From: Candidatus Woesearchaeota archaeon
GTDB taxonomy: Archaea; Nanobdellota; Nanobdellia; Woesearchaeales; GW2011-AR4
Reading direction: 5' to 3'
DNA length: 64,000 bases
NCBI GenBank assembly: GCA_016187465.1
Contig: JACPJQ010000007.1
Location: forward strand, 127,818-191,817
This document shows, one piece after another, positions 19,190 through 31,233 of the stretch. A program made the translations under genes and the position numbers. Under the pieces are notes generated by a model that saw only the letters and a list, made by a program, of their open reading frames with translations, was not told where the DNA came from and ran no database searches. How positions within the stretch are numbered: position 1 is the stretch's first letter; every line of letters begins with the position of its first letter.

Positions 19190-20155
19190 ATGCAGCCAGA
19201 AAATGCTCTGTGGACTGAGAAGTATAGGCCGAGTGATTTCTCTGAAATAAAAGGCCAGAAGGAGATTGTCAAGAGAGTGAAGGCTTTTGTTGAGCAGCAG
19301 AATCTGCCTCATCTGCTTTTTACAGGGCCTGCGGGGGTTGGCAAATCAACTCTTGCTTTGGTTGTGGCAAGAAAATTATTTGGAAAAGAATGGCGCCGGA
19401 ACTTTCTTGAGTTGAACGCGAGCGACACCCGCGGCATAGACACTATCAGAATGAATGTAAAGGATTTTGCGAGGACAAGAGCTATTGGTGATTTCCCTTT
19501 CAAGATTATATTTTTAGACGAAGCGGATGCACTGACAAGGGAAGCGCAGCAGGCTTTAAGAAGGACTATGGAGAATTACACTCAAACATGTAGATTTATT
19601 TTAAGCTGCAATTTTTCCTCAAAAATAATCGAGCCGATACAAAGCAGATGCGTTGTTTTCAGGTTCAGGCAGCTGGATAAAAAAGATATTATGGAGATTA
19701 TTGAAAAAATAGCGAAAGATGAAAAAATAAAAATAGACGAAAAGGCAAAAGATGCCCTGTATGAAATCTCGGAAGGCGACTGCAGAAAGCTTGAAAACAT
19801 ACTGCAAAGCTCGGCTGCGATAACAGACCATGTGACAGAGGATATGGTGCATTCAATGGCTTCTGTGGCAAAGCCGAAAGAGATAAGGGAAGTCTTGGAG
19901 CTGGCATTGAAAAACAAGTTCATAGAGGCAAGAAACAAGCTCTTGGACTTGATGCTGAATTATGGTCTAGCGGGCATTGATGTGATAAAGCAGATACAAA
20001 AAGAAATTCTGGAGCTTAATATTGACAACAAATCAAAAATGATTCTGATGGAAAAATGCGGCGAGATAGAATTTAGGATGACTGAAGGCTCTGACGAGTT
20101 TGTGCAGTTGGAAGCTTTGCTGAGCCAGTTTGCTTTAGCCGGATCTAAGGACTAG
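19190..20155 (+). CDS. rfcS: replication factor C small subunit
   Basis: WTEKYRP, GPAGVGKST, LELNASD, DEAD, AQQALRRTME, IQSRC. Confidence 0.96.
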   Translation: MQPENALWTEKYRPSDFSEIKGQKEIVKRVKAFVEQQNLPHLLFTGPAGVGKSTLALVVARKLFGKEWRRNFLELNASDTRGIDTIRMNVKDFARTRAIGDFPFKIIFLDEADALTREAQQALRRTMENYTQTCRFILSCNFSSKIIEPIQSRCVVFRFRQLDKKDIMEIIEKIAKDEKIKIDEKAKDALYEISEGDCRKLENILQSSAAITDHVTEDMVHSMASVAKPKEIREVLELALKNKFIEARNKLLDLMLNYGLAGIDVIKQIQKEILELNIDNKSKMILMEKCGEIEFRMTEGSDEFVQLEALLSQFALAGSKD

Positions 20156-21170
20156 CTTCGGCCAGGTGCTTTATAAGAACTTTGGTTTCTTTGTTGTCCA
20201 GGACATTGTACCTTAAGTGTATTCCCATTGTCTTTTCCAAATCGAGCCTGTCCGTAACCAAGTCGACGGTACATGTCAGTGTTCGCCTTCCATTAATGAG
20301 CTTGATTGTGCCCTTAAACCCATTTTGGTCGAGGCCGCCGCATTTTATATTCTGGAATACTGGGTCAACTGGTATTTCTGTTATTTCAACCTCTACGCTG
20401 TTTTCAACTTCTCTTCTTGCCCTTGGGTCGCGGGGGCAGGCGTTGTCAAAACCGCTTGATGGGGTTACTGCTGCGTCTTTCTTCCAGAATATATCAACAT
20501 TTCCGCTTAAAACAACATCAAAGCTGAAAGAAAGCTTGTTCTTTCCAACAACTGTCTGCCTGAAGTTGCTTACCTGAACAGGAGCGCCTGAAGGATAGAT
20601 TGTTCTTGAGCCTGTAGGCTTGCAGAGCGAATCATCCCTTACATTAATCATGTCTTTCAATACGCATAATTTTGTGTTTGCCTCTGTCTTGTAATTATAG
20701 CATGCATCTGCCCTGAACGTGAATTCTGTGTTGCCGCTGAATTTTCTTGGAATAAAGCTGTCTCCGCCACTTGGAAATGTTGCAAAAGTCGGGTTGCCTT
20801 CAACTATGTTGCCTTCTGCATCCCTTTTTTTCGATTCCAGGCTGTCATCAGGCTGCACGTCCCTTAAGTCATCAAAAACTTTGCCAAAATCATTCGGGTC
20901 AAAGCCAACTAGATTTATCCTTATTTCGTTTCTGTCAACCCTGAATTCGCCGTCATTCTTTAATCTGACTATTGCGTTAAATGCGAATGATTCGTCATCA
21001 GTAACTTCTGGAGGCGGACTGTCCCTTTCAAAATTCATTGTAATTCCCGTTGTTCCGCCTATAAACGGCGTTCTTGGGGCACCACCCGTGGCTGCTCCGC
21101 TTTTCTTGCAGGCTGAAACAAGGAGAACTAAACAAACTAGCAACGCGAGAACGTAATACCTCTTATTCAT
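20145..21170 (-). CDS. secreted lipoprotein-like protein, paralog 1
   Basis: Signal peptide ending LVSAC; shared blocks GTTGITMNF..PP, CYNYKT..C, GAPVQV. Confidence 0.75.
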   Translation of the reverse strand: MNKRYYVLALLVCLVLLVSACKKSGAATGGAPRTPFIGGTTGITMNFERDSPPPEVTDDESFAFNAIVRLKNDGEFRVDRNEIRINLVGFDPNDFGKVFDDLRDVQPDDSLESKKRDAEGNIVEGNPTFATFPSGGDSFIPRKFSGNTEFTFRADACYNYKTEANTKLCVLKDMINVRDDSLCKPTGSRTIYPSGAPVQVSNFRQTVVGKNKLSFSFDVVLSGNVDIFWKKDAAVTPSSGFDNACPRDPRARREVENSVEVEITEIPVDPVFQNIKCGGLDQNGFKGTIKLINGRRTLTCTVDLVTDRLDLEKTMGIHLRYNVLDNKETKVLIKHLAEASP

Positions 21171-21252
21171 TTTTCCTCTTTTCACTGAATCCATTTATTT
21201 TAATGTTTGTATATAAAGTTTTTGGTTTAGTTTGTTGAGTGTTGATAATAAA

Positions 21253-22506
21253 TCACGTTATGCACTCACCAGTGCCAGGGTCCCTTTTCGGACAAGAATC
21301 CGCAGTTCTAATGCATTCACCAGTTAATGGGTCACTTTCAGCACAATAAAGGTAAGTTTGTCCGTCCTGTAAAGGCACACTCTGAGATGGCGAAGATGTG
21401 GATGGCAATTCAGTAGATGATGAAGGGGCAGATGAGGGCATTGATTCTGTTGTTGGATATGCTGTAGATGAGCTTCCTAATCCGCTTGGCTCTCTCTTTA
21501 TCAGCATCTTTTTTTGTGCAGTGGTTCTGTAAACATATCCCAACCTGATTTCTAATGGAGATATATAAGCTATTTTGCTGCCGTAATTGGAGCTGGGCAT
21601 CTCGCAGATTATAGAGCCTTCGCTGTTAACCAGCCTTATATATCCTATACTGGACTTCACAAGGTTTCCATCAAATGGCCCGCATTGCAGCTCTTTATTG
21701 GCAATCTTGGCTCCATAAAGATAAACCTTGTCTATGTCTTCCCTTTCAACTTTATTGTCGCCGAACGGGTTGCATTTGTCGTCTGCCATCACGCTGTTTC
21801 TCATTACTTCCCCGTTTCCGACATTCTTGATTGTTATCCTGAACTGGGTTTTTGTTGCAAAAGCCTCTTCATTAATTTGAGTGATTGCAATTGGGGCTCC
21901 CTGGCTCGACAGGCTGACACCCTTGACCTCGCATACCTTTTTTTCCTTGATAGTTGAGTACGGATTTGGGTCTATGCATACAGAGGAACTTGCTATAGTT
22001 TCGTATGAATAGCATGCTGTAGCAAGCAAAATTGGCTCGTACTTTTCTGCATTCAGAGTGTCTATTGAAACCCTTCCTTTAAATGTCACAAAATCAACTC
22101 CGCCATTGGGATTGATTGAGGTTTTTCCCTCTAATGTTTTTGTGTTTAAATCTGCAACTGGCGGGCTTGGATCGAAGAACACCACTATGCTGGGATCATA
22201 ACCTCCTAGATAAACCCTGCCGTTAAGCGCTAATCCGCCAACGCCTGTGCCTTTGCCGAGCTCCGGGTATGCGCCTTTGTTTCTAAGTTCCAAAATGGCG
22301 TCAAACCTGTTGGAATTTGGGTCAGTGTCCTGCTCAGCGTGCACTATATCTGGAGGATTATTAGGAAGGAAATTCATTGATAATCCTTCTGTCCCGACCC
22401 TCAGCTCTTCAACCGATTGGGAAGTTTTTTTTCCGCTGCATCCTGAAATCGAGATTATCAATGTTAAAAAAATAATAAAAATCAGATTTTTTTTCAAGAT
22501 TGTCAT
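21253..22506 (-). CDS. secreted lipoprotein-like protein, paralog 2
   Basis: Signal peptide ending ISGC; GTEGLSMNF..PP, CYSYET..CIDP, GAPIAI; S/P/T linker and two DPxTGECI repeats at the C-terminus. Confidence 0.75.
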   Translation of the reverse strand: MTILKKNLIFIIFLTLIISISGCSGKKTSQSVEELRVGTEGLSMNFLPNNPPDIVHAEQDTDPNSNRFDAILELRNKGAYPELGKGTGVGGLALNGRVYLGGYDPSIVVFFDPSPPVADLNTKTLEGKTSINPNGGVDFVTFKGRVSIDTLNAEKYEPILLATACYSYETIASSSVCIDPNPYSTIKEKKVCEVKGVSLSSQGAPIAITQINEEAFATKTQFRITIKNVGNGEVMRNSVMADDKCNPFGDNKVEREDIDKVYLYGAKIANKELQCGPFDGNLVKSSIGYIRLVNSEGSIICEMPSSNYGSKIAYISPLEIRLGYVYRTTAQKKMLIKREPSGLGSSSTAYPTTESMPSSAPSSSTELPSTSSPSQSVPLQDGQTYLYCAESDPLTGECIRTADSCPKRDPGTGECIT

Positions 22507-22637
22507 TTTTACCAAAAACTTATACTTTTTGTATAGAGAACTTTGAATAATCCTCAATTTTGCCACTTTAGATTCAAAGTTCTCTCAGGGAATTTTAACA
22601 ATTTTATGAATATTTAAAATTCCCTATATAAAACTTT

Positions 22638-23675
22638 TTAATATTTCAGGGGCTTCTGGATTGTAACTTTTGCGCTGATGGTTTGTACATAACCATAGTC
22701 TATTTCAATCCTGATTGGGGATGTGAAAGCATCGTCAGTTCTTTTTATTGATTTTTTGAAAGTGCACCTTACAAAATCCTTCTTATCCCTGAACCGTATG
22801 AATCCAGTAAGTTTATCATTGCTGTTTTCCATATTAGGTGTGCATTCAAGCTGGTTTTCGCCTTCTTTGCCTGAGGAGAACGCCCTCAGTTTGGCTACGT
22901 TCCATATGTTGTTTGAGCCTGTCAATCTCGTGCCGTCGCTGAAATCAGATTTTCCGCATACGTTTTGATAATTATTAACATCGACAGGATTGCCTCGGCC
23001 CTTGTTTTCTATGAAAATCAGAAATTGTGGTTTGATGATGTCTCCTTCTTCGGGTATCATGTTTGGCTCAATTTTTGTGACAGCAATGGGCGAGCCCTGG
23101 CCTGTGTTGAATACCATTTCCTGGACCTTGCATACTTTACCTTCGGGCCTTGTAGGCCTTATGCCGGAAATATCCGGATCAATGCAGACTGTTGTGCTCA
23201 GAATTGTTTTGTATGGATAGCATAAAGTGGACGTTATAATGGATTCCCTATATTCGCTTTGCGGATCCAATTTGCCTGTTTTTGCGTTCAGAGTTACAAC
23301 TATGCTGTCCCCTTTAGTGTTTATTTGGGTTTTGCCTTCGACATCAAATTTTGCCTGGTCTTGGGCTCCTTTTGATACTCTGCCGTTTTCTTCAGCAGAG
23401 ATGCTTGTTATGTAATCCTTTTCTCTCCCTATGGATAGTATGCCTGATTTGTCTTTAATGCTGTAAGCTCCGCTGTTCCTGATTGTTAACAGGATCGGAA
23501 AACTGCTGTCCTCAAACACTCTCGGCGGGGGAGCTGTTTTCGAGAATTCCTCTGTCAATCCGTCTGTGCCGACGAAAAGATTTACTTCTTTTGTCTTGGA
23601 AGTTGATTGGTTGGTGCAACCTACCATAAGTAATATTAAAGTCAAAATTAAATTTATTTTAATAAGTTTGAACAT
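22638..23675 (-). CDS. secreted lipoprotein-like protein, paralog 3
   Basis: Signal peptide ending MVGC; GTDGLTEEF..PP, CYPYKT..CIDP, GSPIAV. Confidence 0.75.
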   Translation of the reverse strand: MFKLIKINLILTLILLMVGCTNQSTSKTKEVNLFVGTDGLTEEFSKTAPPPRVFEDSSFPILLTIRNSGAYSIKDKSGILSIGREKDYITSISAEENGRVSKGAQDQAKFDVEGKTQINTKGDSIVVTLNAKTGKLDPQSEYRESIITSTLCYPYKTILSTTVCIDPDISGIRPTRPEGKVCKVQEMVFNTGQGSPIAVTKIEPNMIPEEGDIIKPQFLIFIENKGRGNPVDVNNYQNVCGKSDFSDGTRLTGSNNIWNVAKLRAFSSGKEGENQLECTPNMENSNDKLTGFIRFRDKKDFVRCTFKKSIKRTDDAFTSPIRIEIDYGYVQTISAKVTIQKPLKY

Positions 23676-26600
23676 CTTCAACTCCTTCATTTTCTGGTAA
23701 CTGTTCAAGCTCGGGTATCGGTTGGGTTATAATTTCTCCTAATTGTATTCTATTTCCTATCTCATAAACTTTTTGCACATATAACCCAGTTCCATCCAAG
23801 CAATTCTTGACACATGTTTCTGTTGAACAGACTTTTCTGCACTTTGGCTCAAGAACACTTAACTTACATCCCCAACCATTATATCCTCTTAGGGCTGCAT
23901 CAAATCCTCTGTAATTCTTATAAAGTTCGTGATACTGTTCTCCGGGTGGGCAGTATTTTGCCAGAATACCGTCACTGGCTCCATTTCTGCCGTATTGTCT
24001 ATAGTACTTTCTCAATATCTCTAAACCAACTTTTATATTACAATCCCTGTCATATATTGTCTGACCTAGGGGGCAAACAGAATTTGCAATCCCTGCATTA
24101 ATTTTGTTTATTTGCATTATACCAATACTAGTCCCATCATAACTTGTGAGTATTCTATCATCTTTGCAGTTTGCATCGTCGCTTGGTTTACAAGTATTCG
24201 CTCTATTCCTGCCACTTTCTATGCAACAGTGCATTCCTTTGCTTTCAAGATGTATCAAACCTTTTAAAGGAACAATTGGTATTTCTGTGCCATCATCCAA
24301 TTTCAAACTTGCCACAGCAGTTTTTAGTGATTCTTCCACATTTGGGCTTATTGGCACAGGTGCCTGATCAACCGTAACAGATGTCTGCTTTTCAAGCAGA
24401 TAATCATACCTTGCCCTTATCCTGATGAATTTTGTTGTTATTGGGGTGTTTTCCAATGCTGTGCCTTTGTCAAATTTCAGCCTGCAGGCGAATGTTCTGT
24501 ATCTGTCCCTGTCAATGTCCCTGTATTCGTCCTTATTTTTTAATTGCTGGATGTCTTCAACCCTAAGCCTGTATCCTGTGTACTCGCTGTCGCCTGTTTC
24601 ACTTTTGAATAAATTATTGCATTCGTCCTCACAAACTTTGGTTTTTGGTTTTGATAGGTCGCATGCATCGATACACATTTTCTTATCTTCAGAATCATCT
24701 GGATACGACCCACATGTTTTTACGCACACACTAACGCATGAAGCAGAACAATCTTTCCTCTCATAAGTGTCAAATTTTATGGGATTGCACTGCTTTGGGT
24801 CTACAGTAATGCCTTTCGGCAAAACTATTGCCAATTCATTGATCTGCTTTATCTTGCCAGTCCATTCCCCATAAGGCTTGCCCTGCTTATCAGTTATTTT
24901 GCCTCTGTTTGTGAGCGTTATAAACAAATAAGGGTCTACTGACATTTTAGCTGAGACTGGTGTTAACGAGCTAATGCCGACTCCTACCTCAACAGGCCCA
25001 TTAGTTGCTATGGCTATTGGATTTCTGTCAGTTATGCCAAATTCCTTTAATGGGTCTAAGTTTTCCCTGTACATTGCCCTGTATCTTTCATCGTCCATAA
25101 GGTAGAATTTCTGGTATGCGCTTGTCAGGAAGTTATAAGTCGCAGAAAGGATGATTGAATTTCCGCCTGCCTGAAGCTTGTTCTTGTTGAATGTGCATTC
25201 TGTATCCTTTTCTTCAAGGGTATAAACTGTGAAGGGTATGTCGGGAATTACGCTGTCCCTAACTTCGGCATTCAAATTTTTAATGTCAGCCTCTATCCTT
25301 TTGCTGTCTTTTCCGACCCTGAAGCAAGTGAAATTTACAAAAACCGGGTCGCTTAAAGTTCTCGACTTTATCGTTGCCCATACAGTTACCGGCTCGTCTG
25401 TGTAAAACCTCGGCTGGGCAGGCTTTATCCTGTCAAAGAACACTCCAAGAGGCTCAAACTGGTTTTTCTCTACATTGCCCCTGTAATAACCGCCGGTTGC
25501 GTAGTCTAATTGACTTGTAATTGCATTCTGGGCCTTTCCAAATAATCCCTCCATAAAACTTCCCAAGGTAGGTCCTCCTTCTCTTGGTGTGAAGTTAACT
25601 GTCGAGCCTTGATAACCGCTTGCCTCTAAGGATAAAATCAATATTATTGTTACGATGACTACTGTTGTGGTAATGGCGTACAGGCTTTTTGTCTTATGGT
25701 AGCAATAAGCAACAACAAACAAAACTAGGACGGGGAAGAATTGAAGCACAAGAATGTTCGAGCCAAATAAAAAACCATACCCATAAAAGTCAGCAATCAA
25801 AAGTAATGGAATCATCAAATGCCATGCTGATGGATTGTTTTTTTCCATTCTTGTGATATAGGTAAATCCAAATAGCAAGATATATCCTGCGTGAAGCAAG
25901 GCCTTTACATTCACTGTCCAACCACTATTTATCCAAAAAAATGAAAATACGAATGCCATAAATAAAAATGACATAAAATTCGGAATTGTTGATGTAACGC
26001 CATGCTTTCTGTATTTTGATATTATGAATAGCACAGCAATTAAGCCTAAAAGCACAGTAATTACAAACGCTAGATTTCCCCATTGGACTAGTATAGGGTA
26101 TTGGAATTGTGTGGGAACAAGATAAGGGGCTAATTTATTTGTAGTCCAGATAAATGCGAATCCAAGTAAGGCACCGAGGTATTCTTTTTCTACAATATTG
26201 TAGACCATATTGATATATAAAAAAGCAAACATTATGCTAGAAGTCAATACCAGAATAATAGTTGTTTGCAACGGTTCACTTAAGCTCCATTCAAAACCTT
26301 GATAATAAATACCTCCCCACGGAATTTTGATTTGAGTAAATCCCAAGTTTAGGGAAGGTGGAGCTAGGTCCCAAAGCCAAAGCAATAATACCAAAGCAAC
26401 AAAAAAATTTGTGATTTTAATGTCTTTATCCTCATTCTTTGCTGCAGAAACAAATCCTGCAATTATATAGACTATAAAAATGAATACACCTGAGTAGACG
26501 AATATTCCGAAAACAGGAATCTCAACTTTTAGAGAGTCAGGGAGCACATATTTCCACACACCCCAAAAAAGGAGAATAAATAGGAAGATAGTCCATAAAA

Positions 26601-26805
26601 GCCATGCAAACCCAAAATGTTTTTCTTGGGTCGCTTTTACAATATTGGTTATGTTAAAAGTGCCGCCTCCACTTCCTCTTGCCTCCTGATCTCCACTTTT
26701 GTCCGGATTCAGCTGAGAAGTGGGGCTTCTGGCTACTTGCGCTTTTTTATTTTTAAATAAATTGCGGCTGTCTCTAAAATACTTTAATAATTTTGAGGTT
26801 ATCAT
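23659..26805 (-). CDS. multi-TM membrane protein with extracellular paralog domain and C-terminal lytic transglycosylase (SLT) domain
   Basis: About 12 hydrophobic segments; SLT motifs LIHLES, SIGIMQIN, CNIKVGLEIL, ALRGYNG. Confidence 0.8.
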   Translation of the reverse strand: MITSKLLKYFRDSRNLFKNKKAQVARSPTSQLNPDKSGDQEARGSGGGTFNITNIVKATQEKHFGFAWLLWTIFLFILLFWGVWKYVLPDSLKVEIPVFGIFVYSGVFIFIVYIIAGFVSAAKNEDKDIKITNFFVALVLLLWLWDLAPPSLNLGFTQIKIPWGGIYYQGFEWSLSEPLQTTIILVLTSSIMFAFLYINMVYNIVEKEYLGALLGFAFIWTTNKLAPYLVPTQFQYPILVQWGNLAFVITVLLGLIAVLFIISKYRKHGVTSTIPNFMSFLFMAFVFSFFWINSGWTVNVKALLHAGYILLFGFTYITRMEKNNPSAWHLMIPLLLIADFYGYGFLFGSNILVLQFFPVLVLFVVAYCYHKTKSLYAITTTVVIVTIILILSLEASGYQGSTVNFTPREGGPTLGSFMEGLFGKAQNAITSQLDYATGGYYRGNVEKNQFEPLGVFFDRIKPAQPRFYTDEPVTVWATIKSRTLSDPVFVNFTCFRVGKDSKRIEADIKNLNAEVRDSVIPDIPFTVYTLEEKDTECTFNKNKLQAGGNSIILSATYNFLTSAYQKFYLMDDERYRAMYRENLDPLKEFGITDRNPIAIATNGPVEVGVGISSLTPVSAKMSVDPYLFITLTNRGKITDKQGKPYGEWTGKIKQINELAIVLPKGITVDPKQCNPIKFDTYERKDCSASCVSVCVKTCGSYPDDSEDKKMCIDACDLSKPKTKVCEDECNNLFKSETGDSEYTGYRLRVEDIQQLKNKDEYRDIDRDRYRTFACRLKFDKGTALENTPITTKFIRIRARYDYLLEKQTSVTVDQAPVPISPNVEESLKTAVASLKLDDGTEIPIVPLKGLIHLESKGMHCCIESGRNRANTCKPSDDANCKDDRILTSYDGTSIGIMQINKINAGIANSVCPLGQTIYDRDCNIKVGLEILRKYYRQYGRNGASDGILAKYCPPGEQYHELYKNYRGFDAALRGYNGWGCKLSVLEPKCRKVCSTETCVKNCLDGTGLYVQKVYEIGNRIQLGEIITQPIPELEQLPENEGVEDVQTY

Positions 26806-26890: not shown

Positions 26891-28060
26891 TTAAGTCAGT
26901 TCAACCCTTAATTCAACAACCTCAATGTCGTCCATGGGCTCAATCCTCACAAAGTTGTTTCCTGATGAAACCTTGCTGCGGATGCTTTTTGAAAATGTAG
27001 TTTTATCCGTATCTATGGTATCCGCATGGCCGTTAACATCCAGCTTTGCCCTCTTCCTGTTTCTGTCATCGACAAACTTCAGCGTTATTTCGACATCCGC
27101 ATCTCCATCTTTTATTCTATCGAAAGTGCTGTCATCTATCTCAAAGTAGTATGTCTTGACAGAATGCTCTTTAAAGTCCAAAGAGATTGCAATCTGCTCA
27201 ACGCTGTAGCTGCCTTTGCTTGTCTTGAACACTATGTTGTTCTCGCCTTCGTTCAGGGCGCTTTTTGGTATGCTCTGCCTGTAGGCATTGTCACAGACTG
27301 GCACAGAGGAAAATAATTTTTTATTGTTAACAAAGATGTCCAAAGCTCCAAGCTCGTTCACATCATCGCAATACGGGATGAACTGCAGATTTGCCCTGTC
27401 CATGCTTGAAAACTCAGATTCGCTCAAAGTGAATATATTAGTGCTTTCCTGCTTGCTTGTGTCAGTTATATCGCCTATTACCTTGACGTTTTCAAAGCTG
27501 TATTCGTTTGTCGTCCAGAACTTTGCTCCTACAGAAGAAACGCTGAAATCCAGTGAATTTGTCTTTTGAAGCAGATTCTTGCTTAATTTCACTGGCTCTG
27601 TCAAATCGCTTTCCAGCTCATTCTCAAAAATAACTGCATTATTCAGCTTTATCGTCAGAATGCCGCTTCTCTTTTTCGCTGTGAATGTAACAACAACATT
27701 GTCAATATTTTCAGGGTCGTCAAGGCTGAAATCTATTTTCTTTGCCGTCTTGTCAAACCATCCGTTCCTTACAATGAAAGGATTTATTGTTTCCAGTTCC
27801 TGCGCATTTGTTGTTTCCACCAGGAAAATGTTTGGAATGCTTTTTTCATCTTCCATGCTTTGGGATGCAGCCAGAAGCCCGGGAAATGCCTTCAAAAGAA
27901 CATTGCCATTTTCCCCTCCAGATGTTTGCTCTGATTTCTGCTCTATAATCTTTTCCCTTTCAGAAGTTGGCAAGAATACGATATAAAGAATAATCAGCCC
28001 GGCAATAACGGCCACCAAAATAGCGGCATTTAAGCCTCCCTGACCTCTATTTTCCATCAT
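26891..28060 (-). CDS. membrane-anchored beta-rich surface protein
   Basis: N-terminal RGQ plus hydrophobic helix (class III signal-like); repeated LxxxxNx..L..G.N beta modules. Confidence 0.7.
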   Translation of the reverse strand: MMENRGQGGLNAAILVAVIAGLIILYIVFLPTSEREKIIEQKSEQTSGGENGNVLLKAFPGLLAASQSMEDEKSIPNIFLVETTNAQELETINPFIVRNGWFDKTAKKIDFSLDDPENIDNVVVTFTAKKRSGILTIKLNNAVIFENELESDLTEPVKLSKNLLQKTNSLDFSVSSVGAKFWTTNEYSFENVKVIGDITDTSKQESTNIFTLSESEFSSMDRANLQFIPYCDDVNELGALDIFVNNKKLFSSVPVCDNAYRQSIPKSALNEGENNIVFKTSKGSYSVEQIAISLDFKEHSVKTYYFEIDDSTFDRIKDGDADVEITLKFVDDRNRKRAKLDVNGHADTIDTDKTTFSKSIRSKVSSGNNFVRIEPMDDIEVVELRVELT

Positions 28061-29280: not shown

Positions 29281-31233
29281 ATGCCGGAATTCATAGATTC
29301 AATTCTCAAAGAGCACAGAATTTTCTTTCCAAGCGAGGAATTCAAAAGAAAAGCCATTATCAAAAGCATGGCCGAGTATTCCAAGCTTTACAAAAAATCA
29401 GTTGAAAATCCTGAAGCGTTTTGGAGCGGGATGGCGCAGCAGCTTGACTGGCTCAAGAAGTGGGATGTTGTTTTGAGGAATGATGCAGGGTTTTTCAAAT
29501 GGTTTGAAGGCGGTTATCTGAATGTATCCTGTAATTGTTTGGACAGAATTATCAAGTCAGGGAAAAAAGACAAGATTGCTTTTATCTGGGAGCCTGAATC
29601 AGGAGAAAGCAAGACATACACTTATGGGCAGCTTTTGAAAGAAGTTTGCAGATTTGCCAATGTGCTGAAGAAAAAGGGCGTGCAGAGAGGACATGTAGTG
29701 GAGATTTACTTGCCTATGATTCCGGAGCTGCCGATTGCGATGCTTGCATGCGCGAGAATCGGCGCAATCCATTCTGTTGTTTTTGCAGGCTTCAGCTATG
29801 ATGCTTTGAAGGACAGGATACAGGATTCAAATGCAGAACTCCTGATAACAGCTGACGGCAGCTTCAGAAACGGAAAAGTATTTCCGTTAAAAGGCAATGC
29901 AGACGCCGCTTTAAAGGAATGCCCAACAATAAAAAATGTTGTAGTTGTAAAAAGAACAGGAAGCAGTGTAAATATGCAAAATAGCAGGGATTATTGGTGG
30001 CATGAATTAATTAAAGAAAAGGACATAAAAGATTTTTGCGAGCCTGAGAGAATGCATTCGGAAGAGTCACTGTTTATTTTATACACGAGCGGCACAACAG
30101 GCAAGCCAAAAGGGATTCTGCATACGCAGGCAGGCTATTTGCTTTATGTTTACCAGACTTTCAAATGGATTTTTGACATAAAAGACAAAGATGTTTATTT
30201 CTGCACAGCAGACATTGGATGGATTACAGGCCATTCTTACATTGTTTATGGGCCATTGTCAAACGGGGCAACTGTTGTGATGTATGAAGGCTCGCCTACG
30301 TTTCCAAAGCCCGACAGGTTTTGGCGCATAGTCGAGAAGCACAAAGTCACTATATTTTATACTGCTCCGACAGCAATAAGGGCTTTGGCAAAAGAAGGGG
30401 ATGAATGGCCAAGCAGATGCAATTTAAGCAGCTTAAGATTATTAGGCACAGTAGGCGAGCCGATAAATCCTGAAGCTTGGGTATGGTACCACAAAGTGAT
30501 TGGCAAGGATAAATGCCCTGTTGTTGACACATGGTGGCAGACAGAAACAGGAGGCATTTTGATAACTCCGCTGCCGGGCGCTACCCCGCTTAAGCCGGGC
30601 TCTGCGACAAAGCCTTTTTTTGGCATAGTGGCTGATGTATTAAGAGAAGATGGAAGCAAAGCCAATGCTGATGAAGGCGGCTATCTCGTCATCAGGAATC
30701 CGTGGCCCGGAATGCTTAGGACTGTGTGGAACAATCCAGACAGATACAAGCATACTTATTTTGAAAAGTTTGGTGTCTATTTGACTGGAGACACTGCAAA
30801 AATAGACAAAGACGGCTATTTCTGGATAATGGGCAGGATTGATGATGTTATAAAGGTTGCAGGGCACAGGATTGGAAGCGCAGAGGTTGAGAGTTCATTA
30901 GTAAGCCATGCGGCGGTTGCAGAGGCGGCTGTTGTACCATATCCCCATGAGATAAAGGGCCAAGCAATTTATGCATTTGTTGTTTTAAAAAACGGAATCA
31001 AAAAAAATGACGAGTTAAAAGAAGGGCTGAAAAAACATGTTGCTGATCATGTTGGACCGATTGCAAAGCCCGACAAAATACAGTTTGCTGACGATCTGCC
31101 GAAGACAAGGAGCGGCAAGATAATGAGAAGAATTCTTAAAGTAATTGCCGAAGGAAGCACTGATTACGGGAATATAATGACATTGGCTGATCCAGGCGTT
31201 GTTGAAGTTCTGGCTAAGAATATGGTAAAATAG
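29281..31233 (+). CDS. acs: acetyl-CoA synthetase (AMP-forming)
   Basis: [42 protein letters not shown]. Confidence 0.96.

Follow-up and report, generated by a model that had tools for sequence, protein, structure and literature searches.

A predicted peptidoglycan-cleaving domain on a polytopic membrane protein encoded in a conserved five-gene operon of Woesearchaeales archaea

A 64,000-nucleotide stretch of DNA from a Candidatus Woesearchaeota archaeon (GenBank assembly GCA_016187465.1, contig JACPJQ010000007.1, positions 127,818 to 191,817 of the forward strand; hereafter, the window) contains an open reading frame (ORF) encoding a membrane protein of 1048 amino acids (aa), P0001, here called the central protein. 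Its C-terminal tail, encoded at the 3' end of the ORF, is a real SLT/GH23 domain, i.e. a domain of the lytic transglycosylase type, carried by an archaeal polytopic membrane protein. A preliminary description of the locus, made from the sequence alone, had recognized this arrangement, but had overlooked that the SLT enzyme is an interchangeable component of an operon that is itself conserved. We consider it fairly probable that the protein is a tethered lytic transglycosylase, used for the contact-dependent opening or gripping of the wall of a bacterial partner, either host or prey. The results on which this reading is built were all obtained in silico, and concern the identity of the domain, its catalytic residues, its topology, the operon, the swapping of the tail, a supported subunit interface and a search for wall-polymerizing genes in which none was found.

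The hallmark motifs of the SLT/GH23 family-1 lytic transglycosylases are a Glu-Ser pair, G-[LI]-M-Q and [AG]-Y-N-x-G. The catalytic Glu-Ser pair is present in the central protein within HLES (aa 852-855), and is followed in order by GIMQI, by NIKVG at aa 923 and by ALRGYNGWG at aa 971-979 (see the table for the coordinates). These are the motifs, and the order, given in the preliminary description, and E854-S855 does fall within 24241-24261, the interval assigned there to the catalytic pair. The Cys-rich insertion reported there was also found: about 25 aa are inserted between the catalytic Glu and GIMQ, and relatives without the insert show the canonical SLT spacing in the alignment of the tails (A9). 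Residues E854, G895, Q898, C911, N923 and G927 are invariant in 69 SLT-type relatives. In the alignment restricted to the tail (n = 30), the E, S, G, M, Q, N and G of the motifs and Y965 are invariant, and the Y, G and G of the last motif are conserved in at least 90% of the sequences. The motif set of the predicted tail is more than chance, and the domain is probably catalytically active.

Profile searches gave a concordant picture for the family. The Pfam model PF01464 (SLT) matches 63 of the 94 relatives of the central protein at E <= 0.01, with best E values of 7.4e-19 and 2.8e-19, and a family-specific hidden Markov model of the tail matches 73 of the 94. When the tail-only profile A9 was compared with the PDB, six sequences were retrieved at E <= 0.01, and all six are lytic transglycosylases (Slt70 at 4.9e-4, MltC and EtgA); the match to EtgA (E 1.8e-3) covers the region of the catalytic Glu, and the stretch from GIMQ to NIxxG was aligned to residues 491-544 of Slt70. 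A search of the tail alone against 5.8 billion proteins of 133-426 aa produced only two matches, both on short contigs, and thus, at the sensitivity used, revealed no close relative that stands alone.

The AlphaFold 2 (AF2) model of aa 421-1048 has a mean predicted local distance difference test score (pLDDT) of 87.3, and mostly above 90 in the SLT part, which adopts a lysozyme-like helical fold, in line with the enzyme class proposed earlier. In a VIA-wide structural search, model residues 397-605 were superimposed on Slt (5o2n_A; Z 9.6, root mean square deviation 4.3, 133 aa, 20% identity), on MltF (5aa1_A; Z 9.5, deviation 4.3, 136 aa) and on MltC (4c5f_A; Z 8.4, deviation 4.5, 132 aa).

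The rest of the central protein consists of a transmembrane base and of a pair of Ig-like domains. According to the AF2 model of the N-terminal 430 aa (pLDDT 80), a tail rich in Lys and Arg is followed by 11 transmembrane helices, one fewer than the approximate number of 12 estimated in the preliminary description. The N-terminus was taken as inside, with 22 Lys and Arg residues in the inside loops vs 3 in the outside loops, and 24 of the 25 Cys residues are found after aa 397, i.e. in the ectodomain. From these two distributions the enzyme is predicted to be outward-facing; the SLT domain therefore probably faces the outside of the cell, and its predicted location in silico is extracytoplasmic and not cytoplasmic. 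Within the transmembrane domain the polar residues D146, H305 and D339 are near-invariant. No credible solved relative of this domain was found by Foldseek (best E 1.7) or by the VIA-wide search (best Z 6.2), which is not proof of a new fold; weak similarities to glycosyltransferases of the GT-C type (ALG3, Z 5.4; GPI-MT-I, Z 4.8) were dismissed as noise. The Ig-like pair is the family-defining core. A profile of the first beta-sandwich (midA) retrieved 1100 representatives at E <= 1e-3 (50% clustering), and the second sandwich bears a three-helix insert in which C686, C690, C694, C698, C711, C715, C725 and C729 are near-invariant. The whole central protein had no match at E <= 1 among the PDB sequences (phmmer).

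Table. Features of the locus and further SLT matches of the source genome; window coordinates unless a contig is given.
Feature	Coordinates	Strand	Basis or remark
Central gene (P0001), membrane scaffold and putative peptidoglycan-cleaving head	23659..26805	-	ORF; 94 relatives
K/R-rich cytoplasmic tail and 11 transmembrane helices, aa 1-397 (predicted)	25615..26805	-	AF2 model, conservation
Two Ig-like beta-sandwich domains, aa 430-812	24370..25518	-	AF2, profile, co-fold
Cys-rich three-helix insert of the second sandwich, aa ~683-733	24607..24759	-	AF2, conservation
SLT/GH23 lytic transglycosylase domain, aa 829-1025	23731..24321	-	Pfam, profiles, alignments, AF2
Catalytic Glu-Ser pair, E854-S855 codons	24241..24246	-	E854 = 24244-24246, S855 = 24241-24243
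GIMQI motif, aa 895-899	24109..24123	-	G, M, Q invariant in tail alignment
up389, 389 aa, large ectodomain	26891..28060	-	ORF; synteny
Lipoprotein 1, lipo356	22638..23708	-	ORF; longest frame overlaps central gene 3' end
Lipoprotein 2, lipo437	21253..22566	-	ORF; paralogue of lipoproteins 1 and 3
Lipoprotein 3, lipo349, lipobox L-V-S-A-C	20145..21194	-	ORF; synteny
Further SLT match, source genome (G000), L001	C4:206619-206915		Open frame 387 aa
Further SLT match, source genome (G000), L002	C5:172880-173185		Open frame 525 aa
Further SLT match, source genome (G000), L003/L004	C4:52667-53107		Open frame 451 aa
Further SLT match, source genome (G000), L006/L007	C3:355984-356343		Open frame 311 aa

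The comparison of the relatives showed that the tail is the variable element of the protein. Among the 94 close relatives, Pfam assigned the tail to SLT in 63, to Glucosaminidase in 13, to Phage_lysozyme2 in three and to Amidase_2 in one (alongside SLT). A further 115 representatives yielded SLT (27), Glucosaminidase (5), Amidase_2 (3), Amidase_3, NlpC/P60 and M23 (one each), together with the non-enzymatic modules beta/gamma-crystallin (3), fn3 (5) and PKD (1). In 13 loci from distant genomes, one SLT, one Glucosaminidase and one M23 tail were recognized, and the other 10, some of whose central proteins are too short to hold a tail, gave no Pfam match at or above the curated cut-off, with sub-threshold matches to Pur_ac_phosph_N (L059) and DUF4131 (L062) in two of them. 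In a tree of the middle domain (quick maximum likelihood, midpoint root), 11 changes are required to account for the 13 GH73 rows, with at least eight forced by well-supported branches. The loci with tails other than SLT, namely L015, L026, L037 and L040, keep the same flanking genes, which indicates that the tails were replaced in orthologues. Thus, the predicted tail is either missing or drawn from one of at least seven families of peptidoglycan hydrolases, which replace one another. As seven unrelated catalytic families share only murein as substrate, murein would be the target; this is the strongest argument available, and by it peptidoglycan is strongly backed as the putative substrate of the SLT tail.

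Two other architectures were also observed. Some proteins with the scaffold (in the series P0097-P0211) end in beta/gamma-crystallin plus Inhibitor_I36, PKD or fn3 modules, and the protein encoded at L066:5706-9827 is a 1373-aa form with the M23 peptidase located in the middle of the chain (aa 947-1052) and with further sequence after it.

If murein is the substrate, the question arises of whose murein it would be. Bacteria employ SLT enzymes as autolysins for their own wall, and the central protein might do likewise if the archaeon made a murein-like or pseudomurein-like polymer of its own, which the SLT enzyme would remodel. The source genome (1.62 Mb, 8 contigs, 93.4% complete) does contain one Mur_ligase_M ORF, but three archaeal control genomes also match Mur_ligase_M. 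In addition, the source genome gave no match to FtsW/RodA (SEDS), to penicillin-binding protein transpeptidases or to GT51, MraY, MurG and MurJ being outside the search. As to pseudomurein, its linkage differs, and this 'chemically distinct' polymer is not cut by lysozyme-type enzymes (PMC12352652). An autolysin is therefore, in our opinion, a very improbable role for the enzyme.

The central gene comes second in a row of five genes that share one orientation on the reverse strand, being preceded by up389 and followed by three genes for proteins with a lipobox. Neither Pfam nor NCBIfam has a family for up389 or for any of the three lipoproteins, and NCBIfam gave no match for any of the five proteins. 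In the ESM Atlas, up389 retrieved only hypothetical clusters of Woesearchaeota/Nanobdellota, and lipo349 only hypothetical clusters of Woesearchaeota. The protein up389 is 48-91% identical across loci; its N-terminus reads M-x-x-[KR]-[GA]-Q-G-G-x-N-A-A and continues into a conserved hydrophobic stretch of about 20 residues. We take this to resemble the class III signals of archaea, which are of the type IV pilin kind; it is possible that up389 is a single-pass anchor or, if a class III signal is cleaved, that it is pilin-like. The three lipoproteins are paralogues by hhalign (probability 99-100%; lipo437 vs lipo356 100%, vs lipo349 99.4%). The lipobox Cys31 of lipo356 is invariant in 45 orthologues, and lipo349 is the best conserved of the three, showing 59-83% identity to its full-length orthologues in most of the 48 related loci and 28-43% in the most distant ones. 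An ancestry shared between the Ig-like middle domain of the central protein and the lipoproteins or up389 was considered and rejected (hhalign probability <= 1%). It was also noted that the C-terminus of lipo437 consists of a linker rich in Ser, Pro and Thr and of a short Cys-rich tail (…CAESDPLTGECIRTADSCPKRDPGTGECIT), and that its paralogues have no such tail.

The 48 related loci, taken from species-representative genomes, show the same gene order. up389 lies directly upstream in 37 of the 48 and the first lipoprotein is present in 41, and wherever one or the other is missing, the locus stops no more than about 600 nt from the central gene. The genes for eRF1 and acetyl-CoA synthetase and for RFC flank the cluster in the related loci. 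The putative operon is thus a vertically inherited core locus and not a mobile island. Of 401 genomes sampled from the phylum, 149 contain the middle domain of the central protein, a tally that takes in four unpublished genomes (G360, G244, G243 and G396), and so do all five genomes of the family to which the source of the window belongs. Moreover, up389 and the central gene are kept together in 13 of 13 loci from distant genomes; for two of these genomes, the class is the lowest rank in common with the source genome. As for the lipoproteins in these 13 loci, all three types are present in eight, two genes in two, and one or none in three (L057, L063 and L066); in L058 the operon genes overlap by 4 nt. 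On the basis of these gene maps, the predicted five-gene operon is kept across the order and into the class. Extra copies of the lipoproteins were seen in L053, with two ORFs of the lipo349 type, and in L060, with two of the lipo356 type.

A possible contact between two of the encoded proteins emerged from co-folding. When aa 430-820 of the central protein were co-folded with mature lipo356, a median score of 0.71 was obtained (runs 0.77, 0.00 and 0.71), vs 0.20 for the best control; in the calibration, 58 of 80 solved complexes attained this mark, as did 2 of 110 mismatched pairs. The partner had a pLDDT of at least 79, and the run-to-run agreement of the contacts was at least 0%. Of the 42 interface residues, 19 are at least 90% conserved, vs 68 of 349 elsewhere, and the predicted interface (aa 562-602 and 784-795 of the central protein) overlies the most conserved motifs of the family. 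The models support a docking of the predicted ectodomain on lipo356 through its Ig-like region.

Taken together, these data suggest the following mechanism; that the enzyme is active, that it is directed at a living bacterium and what the transmembrane domain does are parts of it that we infer. The central protein would be the central subunit of a cell-surface complex restricted to DPANN archaea of the Woesearchaeales type. Its 11 transmembrane helices would anchor the protein with the N-terminus inside, and the Ig-like pair would project outward and dock on at least the first of the three co-encoded lipoproteins. At the distal end there would be a disulfide-rich, catalytically intact family-1 lytic transglycosylase, able to cut the MurNAc-beta-1,4-GlcNAc bond (N-acetylmuramic acid to N-acetylglucosamine) of bacterial murein; in enzymes of this family the reaction is non-hydrolytic and leaves 1,6-anhydroMurNAc. 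A lipoprotein-braced, membrane-rooted stalk would thus present a wall-cutting head, and, as such an enzyme could not diffuse away, it would act only on peptidoglycan touching the archaeal surface. The head would be exchangeable, orthologues bearing other hydrolases or none, presumably matched to the wall of the partner. The idea of a cell-wall opener aimed at bacteria, put forward in the preliminary description, is partly supported by these data, namely as regards a probably outward SLT domain and, on account of the hydrolase swaps and of the lack of matches to own-wall genes in the 93.4%-complete genome, a murein substrate; a living host or prey, rather than wall debris, would be the putative target.

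The same chemistry and the same topology would serve an archaeon that scavenges, i.e. one that uses the tethered hydrolase to digest adhering wall debris (necromass) for amino sugars and amino acids, with no specific partner. The peptidoglycan of dead bacteria has been proposed as a source of amino acids for Pacearchaeota (PMC11537232), 1.62 Mb is a large genome for a DPANN archaeon, and this analysis linked neither an adhesin nor a toxin to the operon. However, an enzyme on a polytopic anchor would be a poorer tool for insoluble debris than a secreted one, and the fact that bond-specific hydrolases have repeatedly taken one another's place suggests that they are matched to particular walls. 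For these reasons, we regard scavenging as unlikely.

Several results weigh against the proposal of a tethered wall-cutting enzyme. The window copy taken alone scored only 17.1 bits with the Pfam SLT model (E 0.0043, a partial match over aa 893-940), which is below the cut-off of 21.3, and a six-frame SLT search gave 20.7 bits, or 21.3 when summed with neighbours in frame. The shortfall of the window copy coincides with the Cys-rich insert between Glu and GIMQ. With the full-length family profile, no lytic transglycosylase was retrieved from the PDB; its matches there were to ion channels, of low complexity and located in the charged N-terminus, and were discarded. The structural Z scores of 8-10 are moderate, in a range that the tool rates as common, and with the whole model of aa 421-1048 Foldseek retrieved only generic tandem Ig-like adhesins with low TM-scores, which were not taken as homologues. 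No wall-binding domain (LysM, PG_binding, SPOR or similar) appeared in the Pfam scans of the central protein or among the tallied families of the 94 relatives. As for the interface, one of the three co-folding runs scored 0.00, the predictor was fed with our own alignments and its calibration is only rough, and part of the conservation at the interface may stem from the features to which the predictor responds.

In addition, a recognizable hydrolase is absent from 10 of the 13 distant loci and from about 77 of the 115 further representatives, if the listed hits are summed without overlap. Since hydrolase-less relatives are common, the core function of the module must be something other than cutting. 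It is conceivable that the module functions as a complex for adhesion, or for the envelope in general, and that its SLT domain is mainly a lectin-like grip, binding murein or another GlcNAc polymer without being a cutter. The frequent lack of a tail would fit such a role, as would the non-enzymatic tails (beta/gamma-crystallin, fn3, PKD), and binding and attachment are also mentioned in PMC8204110. Nevertheless, the catalytic Glu and the active-site motifs are invariant in the two sets of 69 and 30 tails, which would be unexpected for a pure binding module, and replacement tails are themselves enzymes (amidases, M23, NlpC/P60). A binding role in place of a cutting one thus appears improbable to us.

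A bolder version of the proposed cell-contact function may also be considered. The five-gene module could be an undescribed archaeal cell-contact organelle, namely a stalk braced by lipoproteins whose wall-cutting tip is repeatedly swapped like a cassette, and its 11-helix base, with D146, H305 and D339 buried in it, could act as a conduit for uptake from the opened bacterium. We put this forward only tentatively, as an idea with a modest chance of being correct. If it were true, one could predict from the type of tail, for each Woesearchaeales lineage, what kind of wall its bacterial partner has.

The closest known enzymes are the family-1 lytic transglycosylases Slt70 and MltC of Escherichia coli and Slt and MltF of Pseudomonas aeruginosa, which have the same lysozyme-like fold, Glu-Ser pair, G-[LI]-M-Q and Y-N-x-G motifs, and are all extracytoplasmic. 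They are, however, bacterial housekeeping enzymes, either soluble or lipid-anchored, and act on the wall of their producer, whereas the central protein is archaeal, carries its predicted enzyme behind 11 transmembrane helices and two Ig-like domains, has the Cys-rich insert of about 25 aa, and would have no own wall to act on. VirB1 is the specialized lytic transglycosylase of type IV secretion, and EtgA, of type III secretion, is likewise a small SLT domain serving a membrane-spanning apparatus of many proteins. Enzymes of the EtgA/VirB1 type open the wall of their own producer for the assembly of the machine, while here the wall would be that of another cell. Pfam and NCBIfam revealed no type III or type IV secretion, flagellar or pilus genes in the operon, and its flanks hold the eRF1, acetyl-CoA synthetase and RFC genes; the resemblance to EtgA and VirB1 is functional only.

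To our knowledge, there is no Woesearchaeales archaeon with a known partner. That archaea of this group cut bacterial walls has already been suggested in print, for Woesearchaeota and Pacearchaeota alike (PMC8204110, PMC9723730). Large extracellular murein-transglycosylase proteins (fam00969, up to 3000 aa) were described in these two lineages, with bacteria as suggested hosts or prey (PMC8204110), GH23 genes were reported in metagenome-assembled genomes of Woesearchaeota and predation was argued (PMC9723730), and the GH23 argument was repeated for Pacearchaeota (PMC11537232); still earlier notes, by Rinke 2013 and Castelle 2015, are cited in this literature. The lineage, the domain and the proposed meaning are the same as for the central protein. 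In contrast, the descriptions of fam00969 and of the GH23 genes make no mention, in the accessible text, of a polytopic anchor, a five-gene operon, lipoprotein partners or an exchange of hydrolases. None of these four features, the cassette-like exchange included, was found elsewhere in the literature searched, supplementary tables being outside the search.

Secreted archaeal peptidoglycan hydrolases that kill bacteria have been reported, and many were assigned to Nanoarchaeota, in a survey that requires a wall-binding domain (PMC12352652). Woldo and Danwoldo of Halogranum, studied in the same work, are archaeal anti-murein enzymes in which, as here, the catalytic domain is replaced on a constant non-catalytic part. 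They are, however, soluble proteins secreted through the Tat or Sec pathway and made of a wall-binding and a catalytic domain, while the central protein would be held in the membrane and shows no detected wall-binding domain. It therefore falls outside the definition adopted in PMC12352652 (a catalytic plus a cell-wall-binding domain), and a survey filtered in this way would mostly have missed proteins of its kind.

So far, the case for bacterial partners of the Woesearchaeales has been built solely on the occurrence of GH23 genes (PMC8204110, PMC9723730). Through the present analysis, what was a stray domain becomes part of a defined apparatus that can be tested: the operon is single-copy and syntenic, an interface between two subunits is predicted, and there is a catalytic residue that could be mutated. 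In addition, the exchanges between SLT and GH73, at least eight of them independent according to the quick tree, amount to a natural experiment, as they could be correlated with the co-occurring bacteria.

As regards the setting of the locus, the window is archaeal, with the genes for eRF1 and for the RFC small subunit on the flanks of the locus, and its DNA is present in groundwater metagenomes (six DNA datasets from three studies, four of which may be its source; no RNA dataset was among those listed). A fatty-acyl salvage module had been cited in the preliminary description as a further pointer to a bacterial host or prey. The gene apparently meant (29281-31233, forward strand, i.e. opposite to the operon) encodes ACAS_N, AMP-binding and AMP-binding_C domains (E 1.2e-86) and is of the acetyl-CoA synthetase type; it is kept as a neighbour, along with eRF1, in most of the related loci. 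It is a conserved housekeeping gene and carries no information on a host.

The source genome contains four more SLT-matching ORFs, and therefore five SLT-domain proteins altogether. Two of the four are clearly above the Pfam cut-off (50.9 and 48.5 bits), one has a signal-peptide-like start, and in none of the four was the scaffold of the central protein found.

Every named relative is labelled Woesearchaeota, Nanoarchaeota or Nanoarchaeia; among the 94 relatives of the central protein the labels are Woesearchaeota or Nanoarchaeota. Many of the related contigs (L008, L009, L011, L016, L017 and others) are titled 'uncultured Methanosarcinales archaeon'. These five have the same operon, with eRF1, acetyl-CoA synthetase or RFC 76-93% identical to those of loci labelled as Woesearchaeota, the contig of L017 containing the operon genes only. 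The 'uncultured Methanosarcinales' titles are probably placeholder taxonomy.

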